Origin: an uncultured delta proteobacterium
GTDB lineage: Bacteria > Desulfobacterota > Binatia > Binatales > Binataceae
Length of the DNA: 16,186 nucleotides
Assembly: GCA_963765675.1 (NCBI GenBank)
Contig: CAVXXK010000002.1
Span: forward strand, 1-16,186
Direction of reading: 5' to 3'
Part shown: piece by piece, positions 3,601-16,186 of the stretch
Numbering within the stretch: the first letter of the stretch is position 1
Layout of the letters: every line of letters starts with the position of its first letter
Made by a program: the position numbers and the translations under genes
The notes under the pieces: model-generated
Told to the model about the DNA's origin: nothing
The model's database searches: none
What the model saw: the letters and a program-made list of their open reading frames with translations, nothing else

Positions 3601-3619
3601 CGAGTAAGCGACGGAACAC
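602..3619 (-). CDS. Tandem AAA+ ATPase, SpoVK/CbbX/EccA-like, with unrecognised ~430-aa N-terminal region
   Basis: Two AAA modules: HAVFVGNPGTGKTTVAR / LFIDEAYSL / GFKSRF / FGNARAVRN, and MGSPGTGKTTVAR / LFIDEAYSL / NPGLRSRF / SNGRDVR. An acidic linker precedes module 1. Start is uncertain because the frame stays open about 40 codons upstream of the GTG. Confidence 0.92.
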   Translation of the reverse strand: MFRRLLASLDDPTAFLTGRDEIYKTATSDALEYAVRILDAAFAAGVIEDCQDVLDTIAFASQYSSLQNLEQLRNATSMAVGALDAVLSSLKIVRGYDIHPQLFFIGVRPWLIWPKQRVKEWKQSRAAWGQPKLDQLAKDDKEFSMRLQNPSERQRAISEETLRQLERCTLERVHERGVESIDTALYEVRRRDGGNFLEEIFHSVANALVGLHSRLLDFIDEAKEQARSAHTVVLDRAPSLPQLLNDETLMSIRDLAAWYYYTVSIGRREREDDLDKSRFLKNRKTAGIDTTRYTPLDTGGFVVVADGPLVLKVPGDCTGADVVQLTADELKRVPIGGSKLLMICHPGDSVYKHLSEIDAQMVEAGRNKRERVKLLKGRQDIWDGVFDAQLREARRVARQAQRQLGASGSSFQIAHHRESGAIAIWHLADTEEGAQTDENADETETQSPPVASSSAQSEADTPALADMVGLDSVKQSLNEIRSLLAINAERKTAGLLVSRLSLHAVFVGNPGTGKTTVARVYAQMLREYGYLTKGHLVEADRSTLVAGFLGQTAEKTLKVLKGSLGGVLFIDEAYSLKHDEQDWFGQECIDTLLKFMEDHRDDLVVILAGYPDRLDALLETNPGFKSRFGERLVFEDYSNDQLKSILAAMASERSYSISEDDLAAAVDVLARERVGKYFGNARAVRNLLEQAIRRQAARLDTLRRSGSALVKETLIRLERPDLLGPTVEVRTSADELNRLIGLDAIKETVREYEALIRLAKLRGRDPRDALQPYFVMMGSPGTGKTTVARIMGRIFKEAGYLPSDQVIEVDRGSLVAGYIGQTAIKTREALERALGGTLFIDEAYSLAVGNDIGASDFGREAIETLLKFMEDNRGRLVVIAAGYDKEMRNFLNSNPGLRSRFTNLIQFPDYTALECSEIFKRMIVDEKLELSTEAGQQLTNIFETLTGAPNWSNGRDVRTFLEFALRAEARRLAAESDASPDVLTEQDLAFGLRSLMSNKQAGAGD

Positions 3620-3982
3620 TTCGCGGCTCTCGTCCGCAATAGTCGGCGAAAATCTGTAAACTGGAATTTGCGTTTTAACTCTCCGATTGTCGCTCCTCGT
3701 ATAGATCGGGCAGTCAGTTCGCGCAAGGTTGGACGTCAGTTATGGTCCACGATCTTTCCAACGGTGCCAAGAGAAGCCAAGGTTGCGTCTGATGGCTTCA
3801 TCGCCGTCTGGAGCAGCGTAGCTGATACGCGGTCAGAAAAATAACGGGCGCCCTGCGGCGCTGACAGGGAGTGTGGGTTGGCGGGCATGTGCCGCCCATC
3901 AATTGTCTGAGATGCGAACGGTGCCATCCTCGGCGCCGGGGTGGCCGCATGGTGTCCCGCTTTTTCCCGGCTCAAGGAAGCT

Positions 3983-4036
3983 TGGTGCGGGCGGAGGGAC
4001 TCGAACCCTCACGAGCCGTTAAGCTCAACGGATTTT
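3983..4036 (-). tRNA. 3' exon of an intron-containing tRNA-Leu(U^AA); 5' exon absent
   Basis: Minus strand AAAATCCGTTGAGCTTAACGGCTCGTGAGGGTTCGAGTCCCTCCGCCCGCACCA begins right after the first anticodon base, with long variable arm, T arm and CCA. Confidence 0.88.
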
Positions 4037-4174
4037 CATACCGTCTACGGCTTTCGCCGCCCGGACACGGCGCTTTGACACGGCCGCGTCAGGTTTGCGG
4101 TCTGGACTATCCCTTCACCGTCCCCCGGAAAATCCGGGGCTTAGGTGCTGCCCGTCTAGTCTCTACACCTTCCC
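4037..4174 (-). ncRNA. 3' portion of a group I self-splicing intron (bacterial tRNA type), 5'-truncated
   Basis: Minus strand shows GAAGGTGTAGAGACTAGACGGG (4172-4151; J6/7, P7, P3'), P8 CACC...GGTG with a CCCCGGA/TCCGGGG hairpin, GAAGGGATAGTCC (4116-4104; J8/7, P7'), a CGGC-GAAA-GCCG GNRA hairpin (4059-4048) and a terminal G at 4037 abutting the exon. P1-P5 not found. Confidence 0.88.
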
Positions 4175-4199
4175 AGCTAGTTTGCTCGACGAAGTGAAA

Positions 4200-4257
4200 T
4201 GCCGGGGGCGGGACTCGAACCCGCACGGAACTTTCGCTCCAGAGGATTTTAAGTCCC
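4200..4257 (-). tRNA. Intron-less 3' fragment of tRNA-Leu(TAA); probable att scar
   Basis: Minus strand GGGACTTAAAATCCTCTGGAGCGAAAGTTCCGTGCGGGTTCGAGTCCCGCCCCCGGCA. No CCA and no contiguous 5' half. Confidence 0.85.
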
Positions 4258-4703
4258 TTAAGTTTACCCCCGCCGCCGCTTTCTCGCGCGCCGTCATCGC
4301 CGAATCGCGCCGCAAATCGGGCATCGACTGCCGCTTCGCTGCCAGTTTCGCCTCAACCCCCCGCTCGATAGAGACTCCCGGCTGAAGGATTCCGCGCCAA
4401 AGTGCCGGACTATTTCGCCTTCAAAGTCGCTCGTGCTGACGCGCAGTCAGCGGATCGAGCGAAAGCGGCACCACTTGCCGGAGACCCAGTGCAGACTCAG
4501 CCTTTTTCCCAGCAGCATTCTTCGGTGTTGGCAAGGAACGCCAAAGTCCCCTCCGAAAAATCGAAACAGAGAGAATCTTGCCAAATGGCCCCACATCGTA
4601 GTCAATGGACATTTCTCTGTGGGACTTTGGCCTCAGAAAACGCCGTGCACGCGGGCATTTCGCGACGCAGACCGCAATTTTCTCTGCTTCGGAGACTCGG
4701 GTG

Positions 4704-4790
4704 CGGAGGGGGTGGGATTCGAACCCACGAGGGACTTTCATCCCTGCCGGTTTTCAAGACCGGTGCCTTCAACCGCTCGGCCACCCCTCC
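4704..4790 (-). tRNA. tRNA-Ser(TGA), complete cloverleaf, CCA not encoded
   Basis: Acceptor GGAGGGG/CCCCTCC with discriminator G; D arm GCC...GGC; anticodon arm CCGGT-CTTGAAA-ACCGG; variable arm AGGGAT-GAAA-GTCCCT; T arm GTGGG-TTCGAAT-CCCAC. Confidence 0.96.
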
Positions 4791-4800
4791 AAGCCTTATA

Positions 4801-4813
4801 AATCAAGCACTTA
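4801..4813 (+). promoter_or_regulatory. IHF-binding consensus in att arm
   Basis: AATCAAGCACTTA matches WATCAANNNNTTR exactly. It lies between the tRNA and the arm-type repeats and overlaps the integrase stop codon. Confidence 0.6.
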
Positions 4814-6065
4814 CGCGATTCCGAGCCGCCGCGACAGGCTTTGACCTTCCACTTTTCTTCCACTTCCGCCGGGTTCCGGAAGAAACGCCCAGAGCTTGCT
4901 CAGCCAACCGGTCCGCCGCTCCCGTCTCCGCGTCCTTGAAAAAGTGCGAATACACCCGGAGCGTGATCGCCGGCGACGCGTGGCCTAAGCGATGCTGTAC
5001 CTCTGTGATTGGTGCGCCGGCCGCGATCATTGCGCTCGCGCACGAATGGCGGAGCGAGTGGAAAGTGACCTGCAGCAGCTCAGCGCGCCGTAGGGCCGGA
5101 TGGAGCCCGCATTTAAGAATCCGATCGCGACACGCCGGCTGCCCGTCGTCACCCGGGAACACCAAATCGAGATCTGATGGCGAGCATTGAATCTTCCACG
5201 CTTTGAGCATCGAGACCATCGCAGGTGCGATCGTGATCCAGCGCGTCCCCGCCTCCGTCTTAGGTGGGTAAAAGCGTGGCCGTACAGGTTCCTTGGGATC
5301 GACACGCGCCCGTGACATAGTCCGCTCGACGTGTATCTTACCGCGACTGCCATCAGCGGCATCGAACTCGATATTGCCCCATTGGAGCGCCAGCAGCTCG
5401 CCCGAACGCATACCCGTCACAAACGCCATCGTAAACAGCGTCCGGTAATAACCCGGCGTTGCGGCATCCAGCATCAAGCGCACCTGGCTCGGGCTAAGCA
5501 CGCTGTCCGGTTTTACGCTGTCGCCATCGCGCGCACCGTCCTCGCCCGGTACGAGCTCGCGCGTCGCCTTGAACGCGGGCTCGATGTCAGCAACGGGGTT
5601 GCTCACCGCTTGATGACGTCGAATCGCAGCACGAAACACCGCGCCGGCGATCCGAACGATCGTATTGATCGTCCGCGGTGCATACTCTTGCGCGCGCAAA
5701 TCGTTGCGAAGCGATTCAATCATTCCAACACTGATATGATTCAGCCGCAGGGCGCCGAACCGCGGTAGTAGGTGCTTGTCCAGGCGCGATCGCAAGTCCG
5801 CCACGTGAGACGCGCGACGATCGGTCTTCGACGCGTACCAGGTCTCGGCCGCGGCCTTGAACGTCGGAATCTCCTCAGGCGCAACATATTCGCCACGGCG
5901 AACTTTGACTTGCGTGTCAGCGCGGTGTTGCTCCGCTTTCCCCTTCGTCTTGAACTGCAGCATACGGCGCGGCCCCTTGACGCCCAGCGGCCGATAATCC
6001 AGTCGCCAAGGGCACTTACAATCGCCGCCCGCGCAATCGGTTCGGTGGATACGTTTGATCGCCAC
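4803..6065 (-). CDS. int: Tyrosine recombinase / phage integrase (~420 aa)
   Basis: Catalytic set R (TGMRSGELLAL), K (PPKT), HxxR (FHSLRH), LGH and Y (RVYSH). Start placed at GTG 6065, which has a GGAGG RBS and overlaps the upstream stop (TAGTG). Confidence 0.96.
   Translation of the reverse strand: MAIKRIHRTDCAGGDCKCPWRLDYRPLGVKGPRRMLQFKTKGKAEQHRADTQVKVRRGEYVAPEEIPTFKAAAETWYASKTDRRASHVADLRSRLDKHLLPRFGALRLNHISVGMIESLRNDLRAQEYAPRTINTIVRIAGAVFRAAIRRHQAVSNPVADIEPAFKATRELVPGEDGARDGDSVKPDSVLSPSQVRLMLDAATPGYYRTLFTMAFVTGMRSGELLALQWGNIEFDAADGSRGKIHVERTMSRARVDPKEPVRPRFYPPKTEAGTRWITIAPAMVSMLKAWKIQCSPSDLDLVFPGDDGQPACRDRILKCGLHPALRRAELLQVTFHSLRHSCASAMIAAGAPITEVQHRLGHASPAITLRVYSHFFKDAETGAADRLAEQALGVSSGTRRKWKKSGRSKPVAAARNRVSA
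4846..4865 (+). repeat. Arm-type direct repeats CTTCCACTT x2
   Basis: Copies at 4846-4854 and 4857-4865 inside the integrase 3' end. The same core and spacing recur at 16077/16088. Confidence 0.6.
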
Positions 6066-6250
6066 TATCGTTCCCTCCTCTCGTCCTGTGCCACGAGCGT
6101 CAACAGCAACCGCGCCGCGCTCTCGCGGATCGCCATCTGGCCTGTCTCCCACCGCGCAACAGATACGCGCGAAACACCGATCCGCTGCGCTAGCTCAGCC
6201 TGCGTGAGTCCCATGCGTTTACGAAGTCGCTGTATTTCCTTGCCAGTCAT
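6065..6250 (-). CDS. Xre/Cro-family HTH regulator (61 aa)
   Basis: IQRLRKRMGLTQAELAQRIGVSRVSVARWETG is a canonical HTH_3 pattern. Stop overlaps the int start. Confidence 0.92.
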   Translation of the reverse strand: MTGKEIQRLRKRMGLTQAELAQRIGVSRVSVARWETGQMAIRESAARLLLTLVAQDERRER

Positions 6251-6258
6251 TGTAGCGT

Positions 6259-6287
6259 AGCGTAACAGGAACGTCGGCAAGAGTCAA
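6259..6287 (-). promoter_or_regulatory. Sigma70-like promoter for xre-int, near-leaderless
   Basis: TTGACT (6287-6282), 17-nt spacer, TGn-TACGCT (6264-6259), 8 nt before ATG 6250. No RBS. Confidence 0.55.
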
Positions 6288-6302
6288 ACGGAACGCGGGC
6301 GC

Positions 6303-6526
6303 GGTTTAGGTACTTTAGCCACTTTACTGCTTGGGCTTATAGCTTCGTAACTTTTCGCGGCGTATTACTATCCGCGCGCGCGACTTACATAGAAGATACT
6401 TTAGGTGGTTTAGGTGGTATTTTTTTATATTATTGGACGTGGTGTGGCTGATCCCTCAAAAACGCATTTCACATATCCCTAAGCAGTAAAGCACCTAAGA
6501 TACCTAATCCACAGCCGCGAACCTAA
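6303..6526. repeat. 9-bp-phased iteron-like repeats in inverted arrangement around an AT-rich core; candidate origin
   Basis: TTTA at 6305/6314/6323, TTTAGGTGG at 6400/6409, inverted TAA units at 6487/6496/6505. 6303-6335 is an imperfect inverted repeat of 6478-6510 (26/33 by hand alignment). AT run at 6419-6434. Confidence 0.6.
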
Positions 6527-6727
6527 GAAGCCGCCCTCTTGGCACAACCGTTGCTGTCGCGGATATCAAAAGTCAGAAACCCCCTGAGCAGCGGCGCAAT
6601 CCCGCGATCCCTGGGCATCACATTCGATGCTCAGCTCGCGGCGCGGTTTGGCCGCGATATGGATGGCAGGTGGATGCCACATCGCTAAGGGCGTGATATT
6701 ATTAGGCTTTTAGCTATACTCCGGTTG

Positions 6728-7288
6728 TCATAACCGGTGCGTGAGTGCAGATCGTCTAGAATAACCTTTGTAAATTAGAGGTTTTTTCTGGCGCGCACGC
6801 GAGCGATCGGGCCGGGCGCGCAATCGTGCGGCGGCCTTCTTGATCTGCTCGATCTGTTTGGCGCTCGCGCCTTTTAACGATCCAGGGTCCGGCTTTTTCC
6901 CGAACGTGTAAGTTCGTAGTGATAGGATCGACGAGATATCGTCCTTGGTCGTGGGTCGCCGCGTCGCGCGCGGTAGGGCGTAGCTTGCCGGTATGACGCG
7001 CGCCACGGCAAGGCCGGCGGCCGTCAGGTTAGCGCTCACCCCTCCGGCGCCGCGATTCCAGATCGAAGCACCTGGGCGAACGTACTGGCGGACGATAACA
7101 ACCAAGTGCCGGCGCACGAGCGCGCGAACCGAGCGGCTGATGGCGGCCCTGGCAATTCGCAGTTCCGGGAAGGCGGCGCGGGGCAAGTGGTAAAATTTCC
7201 GGATGATCTCGCCATACCTCACCTCGCCTCCGCGTTCTGCGGCGCGCCGCAAAATGTAACGCTGCAAGTCGCTAAGCGTTTTTGCCAC
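6728..7288 (-). CDS. Basic hypothetical protein with winged-helix (MarR-like) N-terminal domain
   Basis: LSDLQRYILRR...ISRSVRALVRRHLV...LTAAG pattern. Start GTG 7288 lies 6 nt after TTGACG-17-AATACT. Confidence 0.6.
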   Translation of the reverse strand: MAKTLSDLQRYILRRAAERGGEVRYGEIIRKFYHLPRAAFPELRIARAAISRSVRALVRRHLVVIVRQYVRPGASIWNRGAGGVSANLTAAGLAVARVIPASYALPRATRRPTTKDDISSILSLRTYTFGKKPDPGSLKGASAKQIEQIKKAAARLRARPDRSRARQKKPLIYKGYSRRSALTHRL

Positions 7289-7457
7289 GCGCACAGTATT
7301 AACCGATAAGCGCGTGCCGTCAACGCCAGTAGCGAAAAACACATACGTAAAAGTTAGGTACGCGAAACTGAGGTATTATATTCGCGTGTGGAATCGAATT
7401 GTAAAAGTCGCGCGCGCGGATCAGGCACGCCGCCGGTGTGCCTCTATATTTCCCGTG

Positions 7458-7797
7458 GTGAGCCGAGTTGTAAATCAGGTGAGTGGTGGTGCGGATGGCA
7501 GGTCTTCCGATCCTTCGTGGGTTGATCAACTTCCGACGGAACAAATTCCGAAGGCGCTGGTTCAATTGGCCGGGTTGCACTGCCGACTAGCGGCGCGCTT
7601 GGCTATGGCGCCGCAGCCCGGTGTCGCATCCGCGGACGCCCTGGTTGAACGCGCCCACGCTCGCAAAGCGGTTGGGCGTTCCCGAGTCACACGTTCGCAT
7701 GCTGCAGCGCGCAGGCACGATCCCGAGCGTACGGGTCGGCGCGAAATATATTCGTTTCAGTATCGCAGCAGTCGCGGCGGCGTTGAAGGCGGTTTGA
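7458..7797 (+). CDS. Excisionase-like HTH_17 protein, one frameshift at ~7643-7644
   Basis: Removing one G joins ...IPKALVQLAGLHCRLAARL...DAL to LNAPTLAKRLGVPESHVRMLQRAGTIPSVRVGAKYIRF...LKAV* (TGA 7795-7797). The HTH part is not in the ORF track. Start is 7458 or 7479. Confidence 0.72.
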
Positions 7798-7802
7798 CGC
7801 GG

Positions 7803-9295
7803 ATGGGCAAAGTGACCGACATCGCGCGCGCCGCAGCGCTACCAAAACGAGAGCCTCCACAGCCGCTCGTCCGCGAAGTTCCGCCGGGCGAACCGTTCCC
7901 GACTGAGGCACTACCTGGACTGTTGGGCGACACGGTTCGTGCTGCTTGCGAGCGCACTCAGGCTCCTCTGTCGCTGTGTGCGCAGTCTCTTATGGCAACC
8001 ACGGCGCTGGTGGTTCAAGCGCAGGGAAACGTTGAACTGCCGACCGGCGCCGTGAAACCGATCAGCGAATATTTCGGAACCATTGCAGCGACCGGCGAAC
8101 GCAAGACCTCGGCCGATGACTGGGTGTCGCAGGCGATCAAGGAACGCGAGCTAGAGCTCGATATAACCTATCGCATCGAGCTTGTTCTGTATCAGAATCG
8201 ACTGGCGGCCTATGAGCGCCAGCGACATCAGGTTCTCTCAAACCGAAAGAGCAATCCGGACCTTTCATCGAAAGAGCAGGCGCTTGCCAAACTCGGCCCC
8301 CCTCCGACGCCGCCGATGAGCCCTTTGCTCACGGTTCCTGAACCGACATTTGAGGGCTTGACGCGATTTCTTAAGGATGGGCAGCCGAGTGTTGGGCTTT
8401 TCTCGACAGAAGGTGGGCAGTTTATCGGCGGTCATGCCATGAGCGAGGAGAACCGCCTCAAGACGGCCGCAGGCTTTTCGCGACTATGGGACGACGGCGA
8501 AGCTCGTCGATCACGGCAAGGTGAAGGCACCTACGTCGTTAGAGGGCGCCGCGTCTCAATGCATCTGCAGGTTCAGCCGGACGCTGCCGCAAGGTTCTTT
8601 GCGGATCTGGTCCTACAGGATCAGGGCCTGCTCTCGCGCTTTCTGACGGTCTGGCCTGTCAGCACTATAGGTTACCGCAAATCACGCAAACCCAGCGATC
8701 AGAGCGCGGCAATTCTTGACCAGTATCGCCAGCGGGCGCTTGCGATTCTCCGATCGCAGCCACCTCTTATAGGTAATGAACTCCGGCGCCGACTTTGAGG
8801 CTCAACCCTGGCGCGACCGAGTTATGGGTGCAGTTCTACGATTGGACGGAAGCTCAGCTTCGCCCTGGCGGTCCGCTCGAGCCCGCGACGGGCTTAGCCA
8901 ACAAGGCACCCGAACACGCAACGCGACTCGCGGCGATTCTGACTCTGTTTGTGGACCTGGATGCGCGGGAAATCGACGAGGCAAAGATGCTGAACGGCAT
9001 CACGCTGGCGCGGTTCTACCTGAGCGAAGCAATCCGAATCGTGAGTCTCACAAAAGTTGATCCGGATCTCGTGCTCGCGAAAAGGCTTGTGGCGTGGCTG
9101 CGCGATTCGTGGAAGGAACCCAACGGCTTAATCTCGCTGCCCGACATTTATCAGCGGTCGTTGAACGCGATCGGGGACAAGGCCACCGCGTCGAGAATTG
9201 TTGACATCTTAGCTGGGCATGGCTGGCTGCAGCCGCTCGGTCCCGATGAAGTGAACGGAATACGCCGACAGCAAGTGTGGAGGATTGTGCGATGA
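7803..9295 (+). CDS. DUF3987/YfjI-family putative replication protein (helicase-like), frameshift at ~8785
   Basis: Motifs FPTEALP, TIAATGERKTSAD (P-loop-like), EPTFEGL, LWDDG, QVQP, QGLLSRFL. Continues in the 8795-9295 frame with KAPEHATRLAAIL and a wHTH-like C-terminus. Confidence 0.85.
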
Positions 9296-9873
9296 AACCT
9301 TTACCGAAATTCGACCCGAACGCGAGTTCGGAATCTCAAAAAAAGGAAGGAAAAATGGACTTACGGCAGACAGAAACCCAGTCGAGCCCGGCGATCGTGG
9401 ACGCGGCCATCACGGAACAGCCGGCGGCTAGGCCCGACCGGAAACCGCGAACTCGGATCCAGCATGAGCGGAGCCAGTTCGTGCACGCGACCAACACCTA
9501 TCGCCGTGCGCTGGGCGCCGAGTTTGACGCGCCCGATCTGCTCCGTCTGACAGATGTCAACGAGGTCAGTCAGGACGAGTTCGCGGCAATTCGCGATCGC
9601 GTAGCCGCAGCGCTCGTCCTCGGTGTAGAGGGGATCGGAAAGTCCAAAGTTCCGTCGCTCGACGTTGAGCTTGAGAACTTCGAACTCTGGCAGCACCAAC
9701 GTGTGTCTTACTTTCACTGGGACGAGGCTGCGCTCGAAGCCCTTCGGCGGAAACTCGAACAGCTCGGGCCGGGGTGCGAACTCATTCCGTGTTTCGCGAT
9801 GAGCGTTCAAGTGAAGCTCCCCAGCGGCAAATTGATCTTAATCAATCGCCGCGGCGAGCAAACGAAAAGCTGA
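9292..9873 (+). CDS. Hypothetical protein (193 aa)
   Basis: ATGA overlap with the upstream stop; GGAGG at 9279-9283. Confidence 0.7.
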   Translation: MKPLPKFDPNASSESQKKEGKMDLRQTETQSSPAIVDAAITEQPAARPDRKPRTRIQHERSQFVHATNTYRRALGAEFDAPDLLRLTDVNEVSQDEFAAIRDRVAAALVLGVEGIGKSKVPSLDVELENFELWQHQRVSYFHWDEAALEALRRKLEQLGPGCELIPCFAMSVQVKLPSGKLILINRRGEQTKS

Positions 9874-9929
9874 AAAAGGACAGCCGCAGCGTTGGCGCGC
9901 TACGGCCGGAGAGCGAGAGCGAGAGCGAG

Positions 9930-10664
9930 ATGAGTGCAATAAGTCTAAACGATAGCTTGCGTGCCTATCGGAATGATCTGCGCGGCGAGCTGAACGCGCT
10001 CGCCAATCGAAACCTGGTACGTCTCAATGGGATCGGCGACCTTACGATAGATCCGCTCGTGATCGGAGTCCCCCTTGCCGACGGATGGCACTGCCTTATG
10101 CCGCGTTCGGTCTTCAATGACTTGGTGGATCACGAGAGACGTTTCGGGCGCATATCACGCATTGCAGATGAGGACCGCGTGCTCTCGGGCATCGATCTGT
10201 TGCACGACAACAGTTGGCCGTTCTGCCGCGACTGCCTGCTGCCGTTCGTGACCATGCTGAACGGACATCCGGGCTGCGGTGACTGGGTGAATCGAATCGA
10301 GGACGGCGCGGAACTTTGCGAATGCTGTTGGCTAGCGGAACACTACGCCGGTGATCGTCGCAAGATGATCGAGCACGCCTTGCGATGCGACGTGGGTGAC
10401 GACTCGCGACTCGTCCGCGTAGAACTACGCCGCGGGCGGGATCGCGACGGCATCATTGAAAGGTTGCAGCGATCCTATTGGCGATCTCCGGGGCTGCGCG
10501 AGCTGCTCCGTCTGCATCGCGTCAGCATGGCGGAATCGGCCGGCGTGATCCTGCGCATGCTCGAGGCGCTCATTGTTGAGGTGAAGGCCAAGGAAGGTGA
10601 GCGGAACTCGCGAGCGGAAGCGGCGCGACGCGCCATTTGGCGCGATGAGCGAGTCTCAGCATGA
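9930..10664 (+). CDS. Hypothetical protein with Cys cluster, possible Zn binding (244 aa)
   Basis: FCRDC...HPGCG...LCECCW motifs; co-directional with neighbours; stop overlaps the next ATG. Confidence 0.65.
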   Translation: MSAISLNDSLRAYRNDLRGELNALANRNLVRLNGIGDLTIDPLVIGVPLADGWHCLMPRSVFNDLVDHERRFGRISRIADEDRVLSGIDLLHDNSWPFCRDCLLPFVTMLNGHPGCGDWVNRIEDGAELCECCWLAEHYAGDRRKMIEHALRCDVGDDSRLVRVELRRGRDRDGIIERLQRSYWRSPGLRELLRLHRVSMAESAGVILRMLEALIVEVKAKEGERNSRAEAARRAIWRDERVSA

Positions 10665-10897
10665 CACCTGAAAAAAAAACAGGCACGCGGCGGATATGTT
10701 TCTGTTTATCGCGTATGGCAAGCAATCAAACCGATACGGGCCTGTTTCTCTCGATTCCGGCTGCGGCGCGAGAGTTGGGCGTGAGCATCAGGCGGCTGAC
10801 GCTTGCGATCGACTTGCGGCAGGTGCCGGCGATAGTGCTCGGCCGCCGCAAGGTAGTGCCGCGCGCTGCGATAGAGAAGCTCGCGCGATTGGACTGA
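10661..10897 (+). CDS. Excisionase-like HTH_17 DNA-binding protein
   Basis: LSIPAAARELGVSIRRLTLAIDLRQVPAIVLGRRKVVPRAAIEKL. Alternative start ATG 10715. Confidence 0.8.
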   Translation: MTPEKKTGTRRICFCLSRMASNQTDTGLFLSIPAAARELGVSIRRLTLAIDLRQVPAIVLGRRKVVPRAAIEKLARLD

Positions 10898-10918
10898 AAA
10901 AAAAAGGACTGCGGGGCA

Positions 10919-11530
10919 ATGATGAACGACCTAGATTTTGACCTGGCAAAACATTTCGGCACGGCCGTCGATCGCATCGACGCTCGCGAGGTGGACGAGA
11001 TATTGGCGCCCGACCTTCGCGAAAGCATCTTCGCTCAACCGCGCGCTGCCCTGTATGCGCGAGTGCAGGATGACTTGTGCGACTTTCGGCTTGATCGGAT
11101 ACCGGCGGCGCTGGCGGACTACCGGCTGGCTCTGCGCGAGAGAATGACCTTTGAGCGAACGCGGGGATCGCTGAAGCCGCCATCCACGCCGATCGATGAG
11201 GTCAAGCGCGTGGCTGAAACGGGCTACTTCGAAAAGTACCTGGTCAATGGCTTCGAGCTCCGCACGCTCGCCGACTGGCTTGAGCCTGGTGAGCGGATCG
11301 ACATTCACGCGCCCGCGTTTCGGCTGATCAAAACAGACCGGCGCGAAATCGTACGCGGCGGTGACTTTTTCGATCAGGGGCGCCCGGTCGGTTATACGAA
11401 GGAATTCTGGTTGAAAAAATGCACGCCGGCGCACCTGCTGGCCGAAGCGGAAGAAAAGCTAAAACGAGAGGAACGCGAAGCCGCTCGTCCGTTCAGCGAT
11501 TTCGCGGGTCCGAACGTGAGGCCGCGATGA
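10919..11530 (+). CDS. Hypothetical protein (203 aa)
   Basis: Long ORF in the operon direction with protein-like composition; ATGA overlap with the next gene. Confidence 0.7.
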   Translation: MMNDLDFDLAKHFGTAVDRIDAREVDEILAPDLRESIFAQPRAALYARVQDDLCDFRLDRIPAALADYRLALRERMTFERTRGSLKPPSTPIDEVKRVAETGYFEKYLVNGFELRTLADWLEPGERIDIHAPAFRLIKTDRREIVRGGDFFDQGRPVGYTKEFWLKKCTPAHLLAEAEEKLKREEREAARPFSDFAGPNVRPR

Positions 11531-11974
11531 TTGGAACGCAGGTCGGCGGCCTTCCGATCGAGCTTTTTGATCGGCAGGGGAATTTTTCAAGAAACGTGCG
11601 CGAGGGGAGAGATATGCCTCTATACAAAATTGAAACTGTGTCCGCCATCACCCAGGCGATGGGCGGAGATCCCGAGGCGGCCGTGTCGCTGGCGATCCGC
11701 ACGCTCGGCAGAGGTATGGCCGGCGTTCCGCTGACGCTGGCAGGCCGACAGGCGCTCGCCGTTCCCGGACGCAAAGCGCATCCCCGGCGATACCGGGCTT
11801 GCCGGCGGGCATGACGACGTTGACGACGAAACCGACGATCCTGGACTTGCCGATTTCGACGCGAACCTCGACACCGTGGAGCGCGTGCGGCGCAAAAAAG
11901 CACGCGACGCTGCGAAGCGTGAGGCTGCGAAACGCGCGAGCCCCATCGGCATCGTGTTTCCGAAACGGGTTTAA
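11527..11974 (+). CDS. Hypothetical protein, probably frameshifted near 11740, with acidic then basic C-terminus
   Basis: MIGTQVGGLPIELF...AVSLAIRTLG in one frame; ...HDDVDDETDDPGLADFDANLDTVERVRRKKARDAAKREAAKR...FPKRV* (TAA 11972-11974) in another. Confidence 0.45.
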
Positions 11975-12146
11975 GGATGAAAAAGTTTGCCGAGGCGCGG
12001 GCGACATCTCCGCTCGCGAAAGCCTGGCGCGGCGTCGCTTCCACGTCGGGTCCCCTCGGCAAGGCCGGGCAGCGCGTTGCTTGACCGTGGCGCGTGGGGG
12101 CGGGTCTTCCTCGTTCCGCCCGCCTCCAGCCCGGCGATTTTGATCC

Positions 12147-12534
12147 ATGAGTGACGATCTCACACCGCGCCCGAAATTCGCGCCCTCGCCAGTCGAGCGG
12201 CGGCGGCGGCGGGATATTCAAATCCAGCGCATTGTCAGGCAGATTCGCCGAAACGCACCGTGGACTGAGGGGATCGCCTACACTCCACTTTTACGGCGCT
12301 TCGCTGAACTCTCTCTCTTGGCCGAACGCGCCTACGCCACGCTTCGGGACGCCAACCTACTTAATGGACAGGGCGAGCTGAGATCTTCCCTAACTACCTA
12401 CCGCCAAATCTGTGAGACATCGCGGTCGCTCGCGCGGAACTCGGCCTCTCCCCAACTGTCGCGGAGACGCTTGCACCGCGCGCGAAAATCCTCGATCTGG
12501 AAAGCATTCGAAATGTCAGCGAAAAAGACGAGTA
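12147..12534 (+). CDS. terS: Terminase small subunit, P27-like; frameshift at GG 12436-12437, end uncertain
   Basis: Helical core LLRRFAELSLLAERAYATL...SLTTYRQICETSRSLAR. Adding one G gives ELGLSP, the LGL(T/S)P motif. Lies directly upstream of TerL. Confidence 0.65.
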
Positions 12535-14023
12535 TCTTGTCGGGTTCGCCGAACGGATCCTCTGCGCTGATCTGTGGGACACGCAGCGTGAGATTCTGAA
12601 CGCGATCGAAACCGAGCGACAGGTGGCGATCGCAGCCTGCCACGCATCGGGCAAGAGCTACGTCGCGGCCTGTGCTGCGATAGGGTTTGCGGCGCGATAC
12701 GAGGATGCGCGAGTCATAACGATCGCCCCGGGCTGGTTGGGCGTAAGAACGGTCCTATGGAGCGAAATCCATTCCCTGATCGAGCGCGCAAAGTACAAGC
12801 TACCCACCGTCATCAGCAATCAGACGGAGATTCGCCTCGGCACCCGCAACTTGATCCTCGGCTTGTCCGCATCGGACAGTGCCCGGCTCCAGGGCCACCA
12901 CGCCGAAAATGTTCTCATAATCGTTGACGAAGCTGCGGGCATCGATGAATCCTTTGGCCATCCATTCACGGTATTTTAGCCGGCGGCCACGCGCGGCTCC
13001 TGTTGCTCGGCAATCCGACGACGACGAGCGGCACTTTTTATGATTGCTTCGGCCGTGGCCGGGCCGCATGGCGCACGTTCACGATCAGCGGGTTCGACAC
13101 GCCCAACCTACGGGGCGTAAGTCTTGAACGATTGCTCGTAATGTCAGATGCCGATCTCGACACGAACGAGCGCGGGTACCTAATCACGCGCCGATGGATC
13201 CGCGAGCGGTACGCCGAGTGGTACAACGCGGTTGACGAGAATTCGCCTCTGCTGGCAGTGGTGGGTACTCGGAATTTTCCCATGTGAGTCATCGAATGCG
13301 TTGATCCCGCTGTCCGCGCTCGAGGCGGCCCGCAAGCCAGCCGACGACAGGGGCGGTGACGTCACGATCGGCATCGACATTGCCGGACCGGGGTAAGGAT
13401 CGCACAGTCGCGATAGCTTGCTGCGGGTGCGCGATCCTAGAGACAGGTATTTGGACTGGCGATAGCTATGGCCCCATCCTCGCGTTCATTCGCCGCTGGG
13501 CATCGCGTGCGAAAGTAGTGAACTGCGACTCCACCGGCCTTGGCTGGGGCATCGTTCAACGTCTCATAGCCGAACGCTTAGGTGTTCGCGTCGTCGGCCT
13601 CAATGCAGCGAGCAAGGCGCAAGAGTCTGAGCGTTTCGCGAACGATAAGGGAGCGCGGTACTGGTATCTACGCGAGCGCTTCACGCGCGGCGAAGTCAGT
13701 GGCGCAAGCGACGAACTGGTCGCAGAGCTAAGCGCCATTAACTACACTATTACCCCGGATGGCCTGGCACCGCGATCGAGGATAAAGCGAGCGTCAGGTC
13801 GGCGCTCGGGAAGAGTCCTGATCTCGCTGAGGCGCTCATGCTCGCGATGGGCGAGGCGCCCCAGGAGCCTTGGGTCTTCATCCCGCTGCCCGGCAGCTCC
13901 ACGCCCTACGTCGGCTCTAGCGAGCTGGAAAAACAGCAGAGGATCGATGCGGCTGAAGACGCGCGCGAGCGCTTTTCGCGCCAGCACATGCGGGGAAGGC
14001 ACGGAAAATGGTCGGGTTATTGA
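12513..14023 (+). CDS. terL: Terminase large subunit, split by 4-5 single-base frameshifts
   Basis: Stitched across frames: LWDTQREI (Q motif), ACHASGKS (Walker A), LQGHH...IIVDEA (Walker B), LLGNP (coupling motif), IGIDIA and NCDSTGLG (RNase H-like nuclease), SPDLAEALMLA. Shifts at ~12533, 12953-12955, ~13251, 13390-13393 and ~13765. Confidence 0.9.
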
Positions 14024-14205
14024 AAGGGATACGCCTCGATCGCCGGCGTCTGGTCACGCGCGAGATCTGCCCGAAATGCGAGATCGAGCCACGCCTCATT
14101 CCCGAATTCCAATGCGGGATCGCGGATTGTCCGGGCAGGACGGTGAAAATCACCAGAAGTTACCAGGCCTGGTTTGCGCGGAAAAAGGGAACAGCAAATG
14201 GCTAA
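14020..14205 (+). CDS. Small Cys-rich protein, possible zinc ribbon
   Basis: CPKC...CGIADC. TTG start overlaps the TerL TGA and the stop overlaps the next gene. Confidence 0.5.
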   Translation: MKGIRLDRRRLVTREICPKCEIEPRLIPEFQCGIADCPGRTVKITRSYQAWFARKKGTANG

Positions 14206-14446
14206 ACTTTTTGTCGGAAACCTAAGGTACGAAATGACCGAGCGGGAACTCCGGGACCTATTTTCGCCTTATGATTGCAGCGAGGCGACGATCGTGTTTG
14301 ATCCCCACACGCGCGACTCGCGGGGCTTCGGCTACGTCGTAGTCGCGGACGTAAAAGCAATTAGCGATCTCGACGGCCAGCAGGTCAATGGCCGGCGCCT
14401 GCACGTCGAAGCGGCGCGGCCAGAAACCCCCGAAGGCCGAGGTTGA
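14198..14446 (+). CDS. Single-domain RRM (RNP-1) RNA-binding protein (82 aa)
   Basis: RNP2 LFVGNL, RNP1 RGFGYVVV, C-terminal LDGQQVNGRRLHVEAARP; AAGGGA RBS. Confidence 0.93.
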   Translation: MAKLFVGNLRYEMTERELRDLFSPYDCSEATIVFDPHTRDSRGFGYVVVADVKAISDLDGQQVNGRRLHVEAARPETPEGRG

Positions 14447-14470
14447 GTTCGAGCGGAGACGATCGAAAAA

Positions 14471-14714
14471 ATGACACGATTATTTGTGGGACGCCTGCAG
14501 GACGGGACGACTGAGGTTGATCTGCGCGCGCTGTTCGCCAAGTATCGATGCACCTCGGCGGAAATCGCTGTCGATCGCTGGACGCGCGAGCCGCGCGGAT
14601 TCGGCTTCGTCGAGATCGAGGGAGTTTGCCGCCGCGATTCAGGATTTGCATGGCGCGAAAATTCGCGGCGAGCGCATCGTGGTGAAACTCGCGACGCCGC
14701 GGCAACCGTATTAG
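14471..14714 (+). CDS. Second RRM RNA-binding protein; one extra G at 14620-14622
   Basis: RNP2 LFVGRL and RNP1 RGFGFVEI. Removing one G continues EEFAAAIQDLHGAKIRGERIVVKLATPRQPY*. Confidence 0.88.
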
Positions 14715-14740
14715 GTTCCGCCAATCCTTGAAGTCTGTTC

Positions 14741-14775
14741 TGGCCCGGCACCTTCCCGAGGGGGGGCGCGGGTCA
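14741..14775. terminator. GC-rich imperfect hairpin between convergent genes
   Basis: TGGCCCG...CGGGTCA outer stem and CCTTCC/GGGGGG inner stem; no clear U tract. Confidence 0.3.
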
Positions 14776-15012
14776 GCACCGGGCCGGATCAGTGGGAGGA
14801 CGAATTGACGTTACCGGTGCTCGCCTGCCGCCCAGCGCGATGGTGCTCTCGCTCATCCAGCGTTCAATCGCGGCGCGATCGAATCGCCACAGATCGCCGA
14901 CCCGCATGGCGGGAATCTGCGATGTGCTGGCTGATCGGTAGATCGAACTGACGTTGCAACGCCACGCCGCCGCCAGTTCAGCGACCGTCAGAAGCTCGCC
15001 CAGCCTTTCCAT
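14773..15012 (-). CDS. Excisionase-like HTH_17 DNA-binding protein (79 aa)
   Basis: LLTVAELAAAWRCNVSSIYRSASTSQIPAMRVGDLWRFDRAAIERW. Start placed at ATG 15012. Confidence 0.85.
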   Translation of the reverse strand: MERLGELLTVAELAAAWRCNVSSIYRSASTSQIPAMRVGDLWRFDRAAIERWMSESTIALGGRRAPVTSIRPPTDPARC

Positions 15013-15116
15013 ACATGCCGCTCCCGCCGCCGGCGATGCCTGGTTCTCAACACCGCTCCCGCCGCGATTCCTGCGCCAAAGCTGATCACCGCGATCGCGA
15101 TCAAAACGGGATCCAT
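14988..15116 (-). CDS. Small single-pass membrane protein (42 aa)
   Basis: MDPVLIAIAVISFGAGIAAGAVL followed by RTRHRRRRER; overlaps both neighbours. Confidence 0.5.
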   Translation of the reverse strand: MDPVLIAIAVISFGAGIAAGAVLRTRHRRRRERHVWKGWASF

Positions 15117-15220
15117 CGCAACCCCATCCGACGCGCCGTAACGAGCATCTTCTCGAGCCGACGAATTTCCGCCCGATCCCGTCGCCGTTGCGCACGGCGC
15201 CGATTGCTGGTTCGCCTCAT
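15101..15220 (-). CDS. Small Arg-rich peptide (39 aa)
   Basis: MRRTSNRRRAQRRRDRAEIRRLEKMLVTARRMGLRWIPF; ATGA overlap with the upstream stop. Confidence 0.4.
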   Translation of the reverse strand: MRRTSNRRRAQRRRDRAEIRRLEKMLVTARRMGLRWIPF

Positions 15221-15369
15221 CGCCGTCGAATCCCGACCACATGCAGAACGCCATCAACGACGCGACGCCTGCGGCCTAGCGCGACCCATTCCATTGCAAA
15301 ATCCCACACGATCGAAAGCGCGACCAACACCAGCGCGGCGACGATCCAGGACCATCTGGTCGCCATCAT
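15217..15369 (-). CDS. Small single-pass membrane protein (50 aa)
   Basis: MMATRWSWIVAALVLVALSIVWDFAMEWVALGRRRRVVDGVLHVVGIRRR; starts 3 nt after the upstream stop. Confidence 0.5.
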   Translation of the reverse strand: MMATRWSWIVAALVLVALSIVWDFAMEWVALGRRRRVVDGVLHVVGIRRR

Positions 15370-15372
15370 ATC

Positions 15373-15579
15373 TCACATCTTCGACGCGCCGGTATCGCAT
15401 CGATCTGATCGTGCAGCGGATGGCGCACCGGCCAGCCGGAGATCGGGCCGCCGGGCGGCGGCGATGCTTTTCTGCAGCACGACGGCCAGAGCGTCGGCCA
15501 GCTCGGCAAAAAAAAGGCCGTCCGTTTCCAGTTCATGCGCGACGCGCGCGACCAAAGCCTGACGCTCGGGGTTTTCCAT
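15373..15579 (-). CDS. Hypothetical protein (68 aa)
   Basis: Strong RBS GGAGG 8 nt before ATG 15579; MENPERQALVARVAHELETDGLFFAELADAL. Confidence 0.6.
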   Translation of the reverse strand: MENPERQALVARVAHELETDGLFFAELADALAVVLQKSIAAARRPDLRLAGAPSAARSDRCDTGASKM

Positions 15580-15697
15580 TACCTTTTCCTCCGCGGTTCG
15601 TTTTTGACCCGCCGTGCGGGGTGGTAGTTGCTTGCTTACATACGCTTTTACAGATGCGTGTGTCAAACGCTTCTATTGAAGCATATTTGAAGGGCTT

Positions 15698-15735
15698 TTG
15701 GCGGATGCCGCGGCATCGGCTACATTGTGCCGATG
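15698..15735 (+). promoter_or_regulatory. Leaderless sigma70-like promoter with overlapping palindromic operators
   Basis: TTGGCG (15698), 17 nt, TACATT (15721), 6 nt, ATG 15733. Perfect palindrome GATGCCGCGGCATC (15704-15717). Inverted repeat CATCGGC-N8-GCCGATG (15714-15735). Confidence 0.55.
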
Positions 15736-15912
15736 GTCGAACTGAGCGAGCACCTGCGGCGGGCCAGGCGGGCTAGGTGGAAGGGCAAAACCGCGGAGGA
15801 AAAGTCAGCCACGGCATCACATGCCGCGAAGGCTTACTGGGACAAGTTGTCTCCCGAAGAGCGCTCCGCCGAGATGCGTCGCCGGGCAAAGAAGCGGAAG
15901 CGATCGAGCTGA
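15733..15912 (+). CDS. Small basic protein with internal ~20-aa repeat, likely nucleic-acid binding (59 aa)
   Basis: ARWKGKTAEEKSATASHAA / AYWDKLSPEERSAEMRRRA repeat units. Confidence 0.7.
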   Translation: MVELSEHLRRARRARWKGKTAEEKSATASHAAKAYWDKLSPEERSAEMRRRAKKRKRSS

Positions 15913-16076
15913 CGGCAGGCTTCACGCCGTTAGGTCGGGAAATGCGATCCCCAGTGGCAGCTCAGGTTTGCGCCGACGCTGGTATTACTCGCGCCTTGCT
16001 CTTGACCCCAAGGCGCATAAGCCGCGCGTTCGCCTCGAGCGCGGGTCGGCCGTGCCGCGTTGCGCGTGACGTCCAC

Positions 16077-16180
16077 CTTCCACCCGCCTTCCACTCCGTG
16101 CTTTTACACCGTAACCCACCATAACAGAAACCCTTATATTCCCTAGCAGGGTAACCCACCGTAGCCCTACAAAACCCACC
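16077..16180 (+). repeat. Candidate right att arm: CTTCCAC x2 plus 10-bp-phased GTAACCCACC-like units
   Basis: CTTCCAC at 16077 and 16088; GTAACCCACC at 16111 and 16151; GTAGCCCTAC at 16161; AAAACCCACC at 16171. Confidence 0.6.
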
Positions 16181-16186
16181 GCCTAG

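Follow-up and report, generated by a model that had tools for sequence, protein, structure and literature searches.

What is a small integrated mobile element doing with both subunits of the phage DNA-packaging enzyme and no head or tail genes? The question is raised by the window, the whole stretch of 16,186 nucleotides analysed here, in which a Binataceae soil bacterium carries such an element. We see about an even chance that the stretch holds one copy of an approximately 8–13 kb family of tRNA-integrating Binataceae elements, helper-dependent satellites of the PICI kind in which a complete terminase makes up the sole virion-related genes, and such an element may move between cells by packing its DNA into empty heads supplied by another phage.

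Gene content and boundaries of the element

The gene list of an earlier note on this DNA is largely real (Table 1). The integrase, xre and DUF3987 genes it had named were all recovered with Pfam profiles, the last although it is split over two frames (PF13148 profile positions 1–264 and, at 5.7e-18, 280–363), and this gene also matches phrog_2373 DNA helicase (PHROGs). Because the integrase open reading frame overlaps xre, its true start probably lies downstream of 6152. The spacer described as ori-like is present and rich in repeats, its inverted arms being 74% complementary, and is a candidate operator or replication origin. The gene called xis-like does match HTH_17, but at a score under the 27-bit cut-off, and its N-terminal part seems by eye to lie in another frame; the proposed wHTH gene fell away, with no family in Pfam, PHROGs, NCBIfam or PADLOC. 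The element has three excisionase-type HTH genes, the one at 14773..15012 scoring above the TIGR01764 cut-off of 28.8 bits. This gene and the one at 10661..10897, the third and fourth HTH genes of the window, had been missed.

Table 1 Features of the window, with position, strand and supporting match or remark
Feature	Position	Strand	Evidence or remark
tRNA-Leu(TAA) 3' fragment, anticodon loop to 3' end	4200..4256	-	Rfam tRNA 31.7 bits
tRNA-Ser(TGA), complete	4703..4790	-	ARAGORN; Rfam 62 bits
Tyrosine integrase, intact	4803..6152	-	Phage_integrase 5.5e-22, Phage_int_M 1.8e-10
Xre/Cro-type repressor	6065..6280	-	HTH_3 1e-11
AT-rich spacer, repeat-rich	6294..6520		47-nt inverted arms and TTTAGGT(A/G) direct repeats
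204-aa ORF, no known family	6728..7342	-	wHTH of the earlier note
Excisionase/AlpA-type HTH	7612..7794	+	HTH_17 3.4e-5, 24.5 bits
DUF3987 helicase/primase-type replication protein	7803..9295	+	PF13148 2.4e-59; one frame break ~8795
Hypothetical protein	9292..9873	+	C-terminal part conserved in L003
Hypothetical 244-aa protein, intact	9930..10664	+	Conserved Cys/His positions
Small HTH protein, weakly excisionase-like	10661..10897	+	HTH_17 E 0.018
Hypothetical 203-aa protein, mostly helical, intact	10919..11530	+	Also in L003
Small hypothetical gene	11527..11974	+	Start overlaps preceding stop (ATGA)
terS-like gene, divergent P27/Terminase_4 type	12147..12530	+	One frame break near 12430
Terminase large subunit, five pieces in three frames	12513..14023	+	tblastn with P0001; PHROGs
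65-aa peptide, CxxC...CxxxxC, zinc-ribbon-like	14008..14205	+	Translation
RRM RNA-binding protein 1	14201..14446	+	RRM_1 8e-14
RRM RNA-binding protein 2, broken or truncated after RNP1 motif	14471..14731	+	RRM_1 1.1e-6
Excisionase-family HTH protein	14773..15012	-	HTH_17 5e-10; TIGR01764 31.4 bits
Hypothetical small ORF	15373..15666	-	No family (Pfam, PHROGs)
Small basic protein	15727..15912	+	tblastn 49–57% identity to L031 12374–12532
Three GTAACCCACC-type repeats	16107..16180	+	Very end of window

The same note had proposed a possibly undescribed satellite class, here ~11.4 kb long and bounded by matching arm repeats, and of this the element type is supported while the size and both ends are not: the right end lies outside the window, probably past base 16186, and the left end stays ambiguous within 4257–4803. 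No att repeat was found in the window, nor any direct repeat of tRNA-Ser or of the left junction anywhere in it. The supposed arm repeats are two distinct sets, at 6305–6510 and at the right end, with only a GGTGG(G/T)TT core in common (five matches against 0.28 expected, for a core picked post hoc), and the left set is 1.5 kb inside the element. The right-end set, GTAACCCACC twice and one variant, possibly represents arm-type integrase sites beside an attR just outside the window, by analogy with the relative L002, where arm-like GGGGTAAC repeats stand in pairs next to each att site. The region of the small basic protein still belongs to the element, since the homologue in L031 lies ~1 kb downstream of TerL. 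At the left, the tRNA-Leu fragment, overlooked before, lacks the D arm (Rfam) and matches the fragment bounding the L003 element at 56 of 57 bases, which makes an old or outer attachment-site remnant possible. The tRNA-Ser, whose 5' end touches the stop codon of the integrase gene, is 93% identical to the one holding the L002 insertion. The element sits 5' of tRNA-Ser, an unusual geometry that counts against the satellite reading.

Judged from their sequences, both terminase genes are real. The pieces of TerL cover the entire 501-aa homologue P0001 with no in-frame stop, at 58–87% identity per piece (74–87% for the four pieces covering residues 4–416), and the first piece has PHROG terminase-large-subunit matches. 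The TerL family profile matches solved large terminases (8dkr, 3.3e-15; 4idh, 7.8e-9), and the window protein keeps Walker A, Walker B and three Asp residues of the nuclease that never vary in alignment A1. The call of terL is upheld, albeit over five frame pieces, and that of terS is weaker: the window gene has no family match itself (Pfam, PHROGs) and was aligned with its orthologues in L001, L002, L003 and L031, two of which match Pfam Terminase_4 below cut-off (L002, E 0.0019; L031, E 0.054). The terS family comprises 480 representative clusters, and among 148 sampled, 17 match Terminase_4 and four Terminase_6. At least seven single-base frame breaks (five in TerL, one each in DUF3987 and terS) reflect either assembly errors or recent decay or inactivation.

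The four hypothetical ORFs listed earlier (9292, 9930, 10919 and 11527) are real and belong to no recognised family, and two have full-length relatives of the same size: 25 for ORF 9930 (210–287 aa, 41–73% identity, plus two short ones of 134–140 aa), all from Binataceae where a source is named, and 14 for ORF 10919 (206–216 aa), which is also 29% identical to L003 8381–9013. ORF 9292 is 39% identical over 71 aa to L003 7491–7694 (tblastn); neither it nor ORF 11527, whose tail by eye probably runs on in another frame after ~11800, has a family in Pfam or PHROGs. Structure searches covered ORFs 9930 and 10919, the two largest of these unknowns, and their predicted models, both confident (pLDDT 78 and 86.4), point to no HK97 or other capsid, portal or scaffold fold; at E<=0.001 the former had no match in the PDB, the Atlas yielding no lead, and the latter none in the PDB and BFVD. 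The Cys-rich peptide is there in translation with its four Cys, without a family in Pfam, PADLOC or NCBIfam. As to the reported RRM pair, RRM1 is sound and 34% identical to an RRM gene within the L029 element, and RRM2 is partial, its match covering only profile positions 1–45 of 70 and its remainder lying in another frame by eye, with no Pfam confirmation.

Relatives with the same architecture

The combination of integrase, replication module and both terminase subunits without a recognisable portal, capsid or tail is recurrent. Two complete att-bounded elements were found in other Binataceae genomes, L002 (7.8 kb, tRNA-Ser) and L003 (13.3 kb, tRNA-Leu), and in each the integrase, the excisionase, a replication gene of helicase/primase type, terS and TerL are all intact. 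L002 has tRNA-Ser(TGA) at 3905–3994 with its last 13 bases repeated at 11788–11800, and the stretch between these att sites encodes integrase, AlpA, a protein resembling DUF3987, TerS and an intact TerL of 518 aa, along with small ORFs. L003 lies between a full tRNA-Leu(TAA) at 16232–16316 and its 57-nt 3' copy at 2883–2939, and its integrase has no similarity to that of the window. It further encodes an excisionase, a protein that matches DNA polymerase/primase families of PHROGs, TerS, an intact TerL (524 aa) and counterparts of ORFs 9292 and 10919 of the window, and it carries type IIG restriction-modification cargo. A head module in homologous elements, the observation that the earlier note had named as speaking against its proposal, did not turn up in the complete ones; portal, capsid, protease and tail genes are absent from both L002 and L003 (Pfam, PHROGs). 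For the window copy, whose ends lie undefined, head genes could still lie to the right of the window.

Across L001, L002, L003, L025 and L029, TerL gave the only head-and-packaging matches in the ORFs scanned (57 in the main PHROGs scan, a few more in another, plus Pfam); labels of portal absence beyond these five closely scanned loci come from partial scans. In a quick TerL tree of 75 rows, the window falls in a clade of 12 rows (SH-aLRT 100) that includes L001, L002 and L003, the three rows of known context, all without a portal, and the portal is absent from the sister pair L025/L038 too. More distant TerLs do have portals beside them, the portal directly following TerL in L004/L005 and in 26 of the 31 Dehalococcoidia clade rows.

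Comparison with known satellites and a proposed life cycle

P4-like satellites resemble the element in integrating at tRNAs and in having a replication protein with a DUF3987-type domain, which P4 alpha carries. No P4-type gene such as Sid has a PHROG or Pfam match in the window; P4 itself uses the P2 terminase via cos sites and Sid for capsid resizing, as outlined in excerpts of PMC10690885. PICIs of the SaPI and Gram-negative types share with the element the size class (median 9.5 kb in the excerpted PMC10085698), chromosomal integration at a conserved site, the absence of head and tail genes, and the order integrase, regulator (AlpA/Xre type), helicase/primase-type replication gene and, at the far end, terS, the PICI order given in the same extract. 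According to excerpts of PMC10085698 and PMC10690885, PICIs encode TerS or Rpp and take TerL from the helper, whereas the window element has a full TerL after terS, no recognised capsid-morphogenesis gene and a host in the phylum Binatota. The cf-PICIs likewise combine TerS and TerL with integrase and replication module but are defined, in those excerpts (PMC10085698, PMC10690885), also by major capsid protein, protease, portal, head-tail adaptor, connector and HNH, none of which was found in the window, L002 or L003 (Pfam, PHROGs).

The minimal marine satellites, PICMIs and VEIMEs, are similar in their reduced genes, the lack of capsid remodelling and the several copies expected per helper head. 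PICMI mobilisation seems to depend on a DNA motif alone (excerpt of PMC11389934), and some VEIMEs carry TerS, the large terminase being presumed to be the helper's (excerpt of PMC9618062); in these extracts neither is described with TerL, which the window element has. The Streptomyces satellites MulchRoom and MiniFlayer also have small and large terminase subunits, and according to excerpts of PMC10690885 they add portal, major capsid, scaffold and head-to-tail adapter and miss key replication genes, which, so far as those excerpts go, is the opposite division of labour. Our literature search found no description of such a satellite class, agreeing with the suggestion that it is possibly undescribed, although absence from print is unprovable.

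For the satellite reading we infer the following cycle. Infection by, or induction of, a helper phage would lift Xre repression, and the integrase and an excisionase-type HTH protein would excise the element, which the DUF3987 helicase/primase-type protein would replicate from a repeat-rich origin. TerS would then mark the element's DNA, and its TerL would dock on the helper's portal-bearing empty heads and fill them, probably with several element copies per head, since no capsid-resizing gene is in view; helper tails would complete the particle. The satellite reading requires the element's TerL to fit a helper portal. Against it, no candidate helper was linked to the element, the nearest portal-linked Binataceae TerL (L005) being only ~42% identical, and neither a packaging signal nor an excised or encapsidated form of the element was observed.

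Alternative explanations

That the stretch is a decaying prophage remnant, in which head, tail and lysis genes were deleted, integrase, replication and terminase were left over and frameshifts are destroying the copy, we consider doubtful. Like cryptic prophages, the window copy combines an integrase with scattered phage genes and frame-broken genes, and its breaks fall chiefly in the genes for terminase and replication, with integrase, xre and a flanking AAA+ gene intact. TerL is likewise broken in three relatives (L028, L029 and L031), L031 has tape-measure fragments upstream of terS, and related TerLs occupy ordinary head modules in L004, L005, L011, L064 and 31 Dehalococcoidia loci. However, the att boundaries of L002 and L003 are precise, their genes are intact and their minimal architecture recurs across species, the two elements differing in both integrase and target tRNA; one would not expect separate deletions to yield the same set. 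The portal-less TerLs, moreover, form one clade. In the window itself, the five TerL breaks are all single-base length changes, seven of seven checked invariant catalytic positions are kept in a protein 84% identical to P0001, and neither of the neighbouring unknown ORFs, 9930 and 10919, is broken, both being conserved.

It is unlikely that the terminase pair is kept for a role other than spread, in anti-phage interference or the processing of replication products, with the RRM proteins as regulators. Interference could mean occupying or cutting at an invading phage's procapsid, or cutting phage DNA. Satellites and islands frequently carry defence cargo, and the type IIG restriction-modification enzyme of L003 fits that pattern. 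RRM genes recur beside the terS/TerL module (the window, L029 and an RRM-like stretch in L002), RRM_1 also matching one of the 148 terS relatives. SaPIs are known to interfere with helper packaging through TerS (excerpt of PMC10690885). Yet PADLOC defence families match no element gene except generic HTH, a full TerL with ATPase and nuclease domains and an overlapping cognate TerS just upstream is the standard packaging layout, and interference can coexist with self-packaging.

A partial assembly artefact, in which reads of several related elements were merged into one chimeric consensus that carries indels and perhaps a wrong order of genes, is improbable. In its favour, the breaks gather in TerL, which is better conserved among related elements than any other gene: it is 84–87% identical to P0001, whereas ORF 10919 is just 51% identical to the copy on a 206,632-base contig of the same size as that of P0001. 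Four of the five TerL breaks lie in or beside short single-base runs, and TerL is broken in three of five close loci with 'contig_N' record names. Against it, the window gene order agrees with L003 and L002, ORFs 9930 and 10919 are of normal length and have identical counterparts among the catalogued proteins of a 196,551-base contig, and merging would account for the indels, not for the gene content.

Genes of the window and condition of its terminase

Profile searches (Pfam, PHROGs and NCBIfam) across the window, whose 16,186 bases have a G+C content of ~60%, recovered the bulk of the genes that an earlier note had listed for the stretch 4791–16186, with the exception of a 'wHTH' gene, the corresponding 204-aa ORF matching no family. 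The only ORFs of the element longer than 335 aa are the integrase, the DUF3987 gene and TerL, and no portal, capsid, protease, tail or lysis gene was matched by Pfam or PHROGs among the window ORFs. A regulation module is present, formed by xre and excisionase/AlpA-type HTH_17 genes (PF05930 AlpA 3.3e-11 in L002, a complete relative).

Features of the window, with coordinates, strand and principal matches
Feature	Coordinates	Strand	Remarks
tRNA-like 3' fragment	about 46–80	minus	found by eye
tRNA-Leu anticodon-arm copy, 14–25 bases	291–315		
Tandem AAA+ ATPase, 1005 aa	602–3619	minus	SpoVK/CbbX/EccA-type match; frame uninterrupted
tRNA-like 3' fragment	3983–4058	minus	weak tmRNA/tRNA-like match
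tRNA-Leu(TAA) 3' fragment	4200–4256	minus	
tRNA-Ser(TGA), complete	4703–4790	minus	
Tyrosine integrase	4803–6152	minus	PF00589 5.5e-22; frame uninterrupted; at one end of the element
Xre repressor	6065–6280	minus	HTH_3 1e-11; frame uninterrupted
AT-rich spacer with inverted and direct repeats	6294–6520		
204-aa ORF, family-less	6728–7342	minus	
Excisionase-type HTH	7612–7794		profile score under cut-off
DUF3987 helicase/primase-type gene	7803–9295		DUF3987 2.4e-59, frame-broken; phrog_2373 DNA helicase; weak phrog_3022 DNA primase
Hypothetical genes	starts 9292, 9930, 10919, 11527		
Small HTH gene amid the hypothetical genes	10661–10897		
terS-like gene	12147 to about 12530		
TerL	12513–14023		
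65-aa peptide with four Cys	14008–14205		
RRM genes (two)	14201–14446 and 14471–14731		
Excisionase-family HTH gene	14773–15012	minus	
Two small ORFs, then three clustered GTAACCCACC-type repeats	repeats in the last 80 bases		

The left flank (1–4700) looks, from its sequence, like an integration hot spot. Its tRNA-like remnants bracket the AAA+ ATPase gene, which has no integrase of its own and gave weak matches to IetA/TRIP13 defence models.

The window TerL was recovered by tblastn with P0001, its closest full-length homologue (501 aa), as five pieces in three frames that together cover the whole protein. Identities of the pieces to P0001 are 58–87% (74–87% for the four spanning residues 4–416 and 58% for the C-terminal piece), and the TerL ATG lies in a different frame again from the first piece. 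All five breaks are single-base length differences, four of them in or beside short one-base runs, and reading through them gives zero in-frame stops and 84% identity to P0001 over 448 columns. The seven residues checked at invariant columns of the TerL alignment (G45, K46, D137, E138, D287, D337 and D434) are all kept, and the pieces show the positions of an N-terminal ATPase (Walker A and B) and the Asp positions of a C-terminal RNase H-like nuclease; the TerL family also matches large terminases in the PDB. The changes are confined to one base each, no stops occur and the motifs are kept, which indicates errors in the assembly or events of very recent date.

Other genes of the element are affected as well. 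DUF3987 is broken at about 8795, with profile positions 1–264 and 280–363 in separate frames, alignment with orthologues places a frame switch in terS near 12430, and the second RRM gene (RRM2) covers only profile positions 1–45 of 70. Continuations in other frames were suspected by eye for the RRM2 tail, the N-terminal part of the 7.6-kb HTH gene and the tail of ORF 11527 (ORFs are named by their start coordinate); Pfam confirmed none of the three, and BLASTP found no similarity between the RRM2 tail and the first RRM gene. The clustering of breaks in the terminase region argues against error spread uniformly, and those in TerL may have arisen where reads of related elements were mapped onto this gene, the most conserved one. 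Among the TerL loci retrieved by a genome scan (numbered with L), TerL is frame-broken in L028, L029 and L031 and intact in L001, L002, L003, L025 and L038.

Directly upstream of TerL, and overlapping it, lies the terS-like gene, which aligns with its orthologues in L001, L002, L003 and L031. Two of these four orthologues match Pfam Terminase_4, below the cut-off. A profile search gave 480 representative relatives, and in a sample of 148 terS relatives Terminase_4 was matched by 17, Terminase_6 by 4, an RRM domain by 1 and any further family by at most one member. The terS profile had no match in the PDB (best E 0.48), NCBIfam gave none either, and a profile-profile comparison with the terS that PHROGs recognise in the Acidobacteria loci showed no similarity (probability 0.2%). 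We accept the gene as a putative divergent P27-type small terminase.

Two of the hypothetical genes appear to be whole: ORF 9930 encodes 244 aa, against 210–287 aa in 25 of its 27 other matches, and ORF 10919 encodes 203 aa, against 206–216 aa in its relatives. Both have full-length relatives, several of which share a contig. AlphaFold models built from the relatives' alignments were confident (pLDDT 78.0 for ORF 9930 and 86.4 for ORF 10919). The model of ORF 9930 combines a small beta domain with a C-terminal half made of helices and has a loop rich in Cys and His that is poorly modelled, while that of ORF 10919 is mostly helical. The structure search proposed in the earlier note was run on these two ORFs and revealed no HK97-like fold: at E ≤0.001 Foldseek returned zero matches in the PDB for either and zero in BFVD, searched with ORF 10919 only, while the best Atlas score for ORF 9930, 0.86, was short of the lead threshold. 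Both ORFs were rejected as portal or capsid candidates, being too small for a portal and without an HK97 fold; a helical protein may nevertheless act like a scaffold or determine head size, a role that such searches could miss. RRM-type genes recur beside the terS/TerL module in varied positions (14201–14731 in the window, 8729–9088 in L029 and 9428–9553 in L002). The four-Cys peptide has no similarity to the protein that follows TerL in L003.

Related elements and the ends of the element

TerL homologues of about 500–520 aa were found with identities of up to 87%. The scan took one genome per species, and among the best 80 of 211 confirmed loci the closest belong to Candidatus Binataceae and 'delta proteobacterium' records. 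Two relatives, L002 and L003, are complete. The L002 unit spans 7.8 kb from tRNA-Ser(TGA) to a 13-base repeat of the tRNA 3' end; besides terS and an intact TerL it holds an integrase, AlpA, a DUF3987-like protein and small ORFs. The L003 unit spans 13.3 kb from tRNA-Leu(TAA) to a 57-nt 3' copy of it. Its terS and intact TerL are accompanied by an integrase, an excisionase, a protein with matches to DNA polymerase/primase families of PHROGs, homologues of ORFs 9292 and 10919, a small DNA-binding protein and a type IIG methylase whose specificity part is TaqI_C-like. Three further relatives (L001, L025 and L029) are cut by contig ends, with TerL near one end of an integrase-bearing unit and host genes beyond. 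The order in L001 is terS, TerL, three small ORFs, integrase and then host RtcB, and in L029 it is tRNA-Val, integrase, Prim-Pol, MT-A70, RRM, terS and TerL. A primase-replicase module is present in the window as the frame-broken DUF3987 gene, in L029 as Prim-Pol and in L003 as the protein of the polymerase/primase families.

Among the ORFs scanned from all five of these relatives, TerL was the only head-and-packaging match (57 ORFs and a few more against PHROGs, together with Pfam runs). A head module in homologous elements had been named beforehand as evidence that would speak against a satellite, and Pfam and PHROGs found none in the complete L002 and L003.

The type IIG restriction-modification cargo of L003 (12608–15710) combines Eco57I/N6_Mtase with the TaqI_C-like part, apparently in two overlapping ORFs. 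Satellites habitually carry defence genes, and this cargo is consistent with that habit. In L029, a 91-base tandem duplication of 92% identity (743–1039) comprises the region upstream of tRNA-Val and its first 25 bases, and sits just before the tRNA-Val that holds the inserted element.

The boundaries of the element differ from the earlier description of a stretch bounded by matching arm repeats, as no att repeat was found in the window. Of the two repeat sets, the left one is found 1.5 kb within the element, in the interval from xre to ORF 6728, and the right set takes up the very end of the window; the two differ and have in common only a core, GGTGG(G/T)TT, that was chosen post hoc. Searches with seeds of 10 and 7 and with blastn-short for a second copy of the tRNA-Ser, the integrase-side junction or the tRNA-like fragments in the window gave nothing above chance. 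A direct repeat of the tRNA 3' end is present at the far end of both L002 and L003. The element is situated 5' of tRNA-Ser; islands usually sit after the 3' end of a tRNA.

The tRNA-Leu(TAA) 3' fragment of the left flank, 57 nt long, is identical at 56 of 57 positions to the fragment bounding the L003 element, and this likeness suggests a possible insertion into tRNA-Leu, running rightwards. The fragment was dropped as the left border that the parallel with L003 had suggested, because the integrases of the window and L003 are unrelated and the complete tRNA-Ser intervenes; the left end may thus lie anywhere from 4257 to 4803. Most likely the right end is outside the window, given that a homologue of ORF 15727 is found ~1 kb past TerL in L031, with a tRNA-Leu ~1.2 kb further on, and that L002 has arm-like GGGGTAAC pairs 60–80 bases ahead of its att core which resemble the repeats ending the window. 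A 19-base stretch at 4795–4813, between tRNA-Ser and the integrase stop, recurs without a mismatch at 7995–8013 of L002, in the middle of an iteron-rich, origin-like spacer; as it is limited to L002 among the 80 loci, it is given no meaning.

Comparison with known satellites

Phage-inducible chromosomal islands (PICIs) have the order integrase, regulator, replication gene and terS (PMC10085698). The element has the same order, with TerL as an extra after terS. As described, PICIs carry no other packaging or structural genes and the helper provides TerL, whereas the element has a full TerL behind terS. TerL is common to the element and capsid-forming PICIs (cf-PICIs), but the definition of the latter also includes genes for capsid, portal, protease and connector (PMC10085698, PMC10690885), and neither capsid with prohead protease nor portal with head-tail adaptor/connector was found by Pfam or PHROGs in the window, L002 or L003. 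Streptomyces satellites are described as carrying TerS, TerL, portal and capsid (PMC10690885). TerS is described in some VEIMEs (PMC9618062), and PICMIs seem to require a DNA motif only (PMC11389934). The Sid/Psu/Delta-type capsid and transactivation genes of P4-like satellites were not found, as no hypothetical ORF of the window matched any PHROG. A literature search listed neither a satellite that has TerS and TerL but lacks head genes nor any work on Binatia mobile elements, although such a search leaves absence unproven.

The PICI gene order with an added TerL, together with the lack of a literature match, leads us to a PICI-like reading, and we consider the chances evenly balanced that this family is a PICI-like satellite whose own TerS and TerL, a complete terminase, are brought to proheads built by the helper phage. 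Most of the gene list and the terminase-without-head pattern of the earlier note stand, the boundaries it stated do not, and its satellite interpretation is partly supported, on the basis of the relatives more than of the window's damaged and cut copy. More tentatively, we propose that Binataceae, and perhaps other soil phyla, may hold an undescribed class of satellites whose sole virion-related genes are a complete terminase; such elements would supply helper proheads with a motor and a specificity subunit of their own, independently of the helper's packaging enzyme and without capsid remodelling, and the RRM proteins would be recurrent, functionally linked companions.

That the element is a prophage remnant seems unlikely. 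L031 has tape-measure fragments upstream of terS, as a prophage remnant would. The head, tail and lysis modules of an intact temperate prophage are absent from 4791–16186 and from the complete L002 and L003. A non-packaging or interference role is more doubtful still; TerL keeps its ATPase and nuclease positions, and PADLOC gave no match on the element genes besides generic HTH. An assembly-driven artefact behind the damaged state is very improbable.

The satellites compared here follow one of two strategies: P4-like elements and PICIs borrow the large terminase of the helper, and cf-PICIs and the Streptomyces satellites carry TerL with a whole head module. If the PICI-like satellite reading is true, an element with only TerS and TerL fills the gap between these two strategies, a packaging motor by itself can serve as a hijacking device, and satellites are extended to an uncultured soil phylum; it also raises how a foreign TerL recognises the helper portal. 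Rules for finding satellites would need widening, since current models would label such elements incomplete cf-PICIs or prophage debris.

Phylogeny of TerL

TerL phylogeny was estimated with a quick maximum-likelihood tree (75 rows, SH-aLRT support only), which left out ORFs <420 aa or >720 aa, including those of the frame-broken L028, L029 and L031 and some others. The window TerL falls with P0001 and P0002, its closest catalogued proteins, in a 12-row clade with 100% support that also contains L001, L002 and L003, and the sister of this clade is the L025/L038 pair, which is portal-less too. In the Dehalococcoidia clade a portal directly follows TerL in 26 of the 31 rows (portal PHROGs 1e-68 to 1e-78 in two representatives), and L004, L005, L011 and L064 have a portal plus protease or head-morphogenesis genes. 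Beyond the closely scanned loci, the label 'no portal' denotes absence both from the portal cluster and from partial PHROG scans, with at least 3 kb of downstream sequence. By the tree and gene contexts, this TerL lineage includes members that belong to ordinary head modules, whereas those of the window's own clade occur in small elements that lack a head. The existence of a TerL clade in which portals are repeatedly missing matters for metagenome studies that take TerL to mark prophages or viruses.

Several other loci have contexts of their own. Among L035–L079 (Dehalococcoidia), a portal gene was recorded directly behind TerL in 31 loci, and in at least one of these, L040, the large ORFs that come next have matches to esterase families, not head genes. 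In L007, L022 and L024 (Acidobacteriaceae), where a portal was not found, TerL lies near a primase/helicase, a short fragment of a head-morphogenesis gene and an ORF that looks like a tape-measure/endolysin fusion, and these loci may be another kind of reduced element. One Terriglobia genome has three near-identical TerL copies at three sites (L019, L021 and L023; branch lengths 0–0.05), again with no portal found; they look like a multi-copy element, and a transposase and a reverse transcriptase lie near L021.
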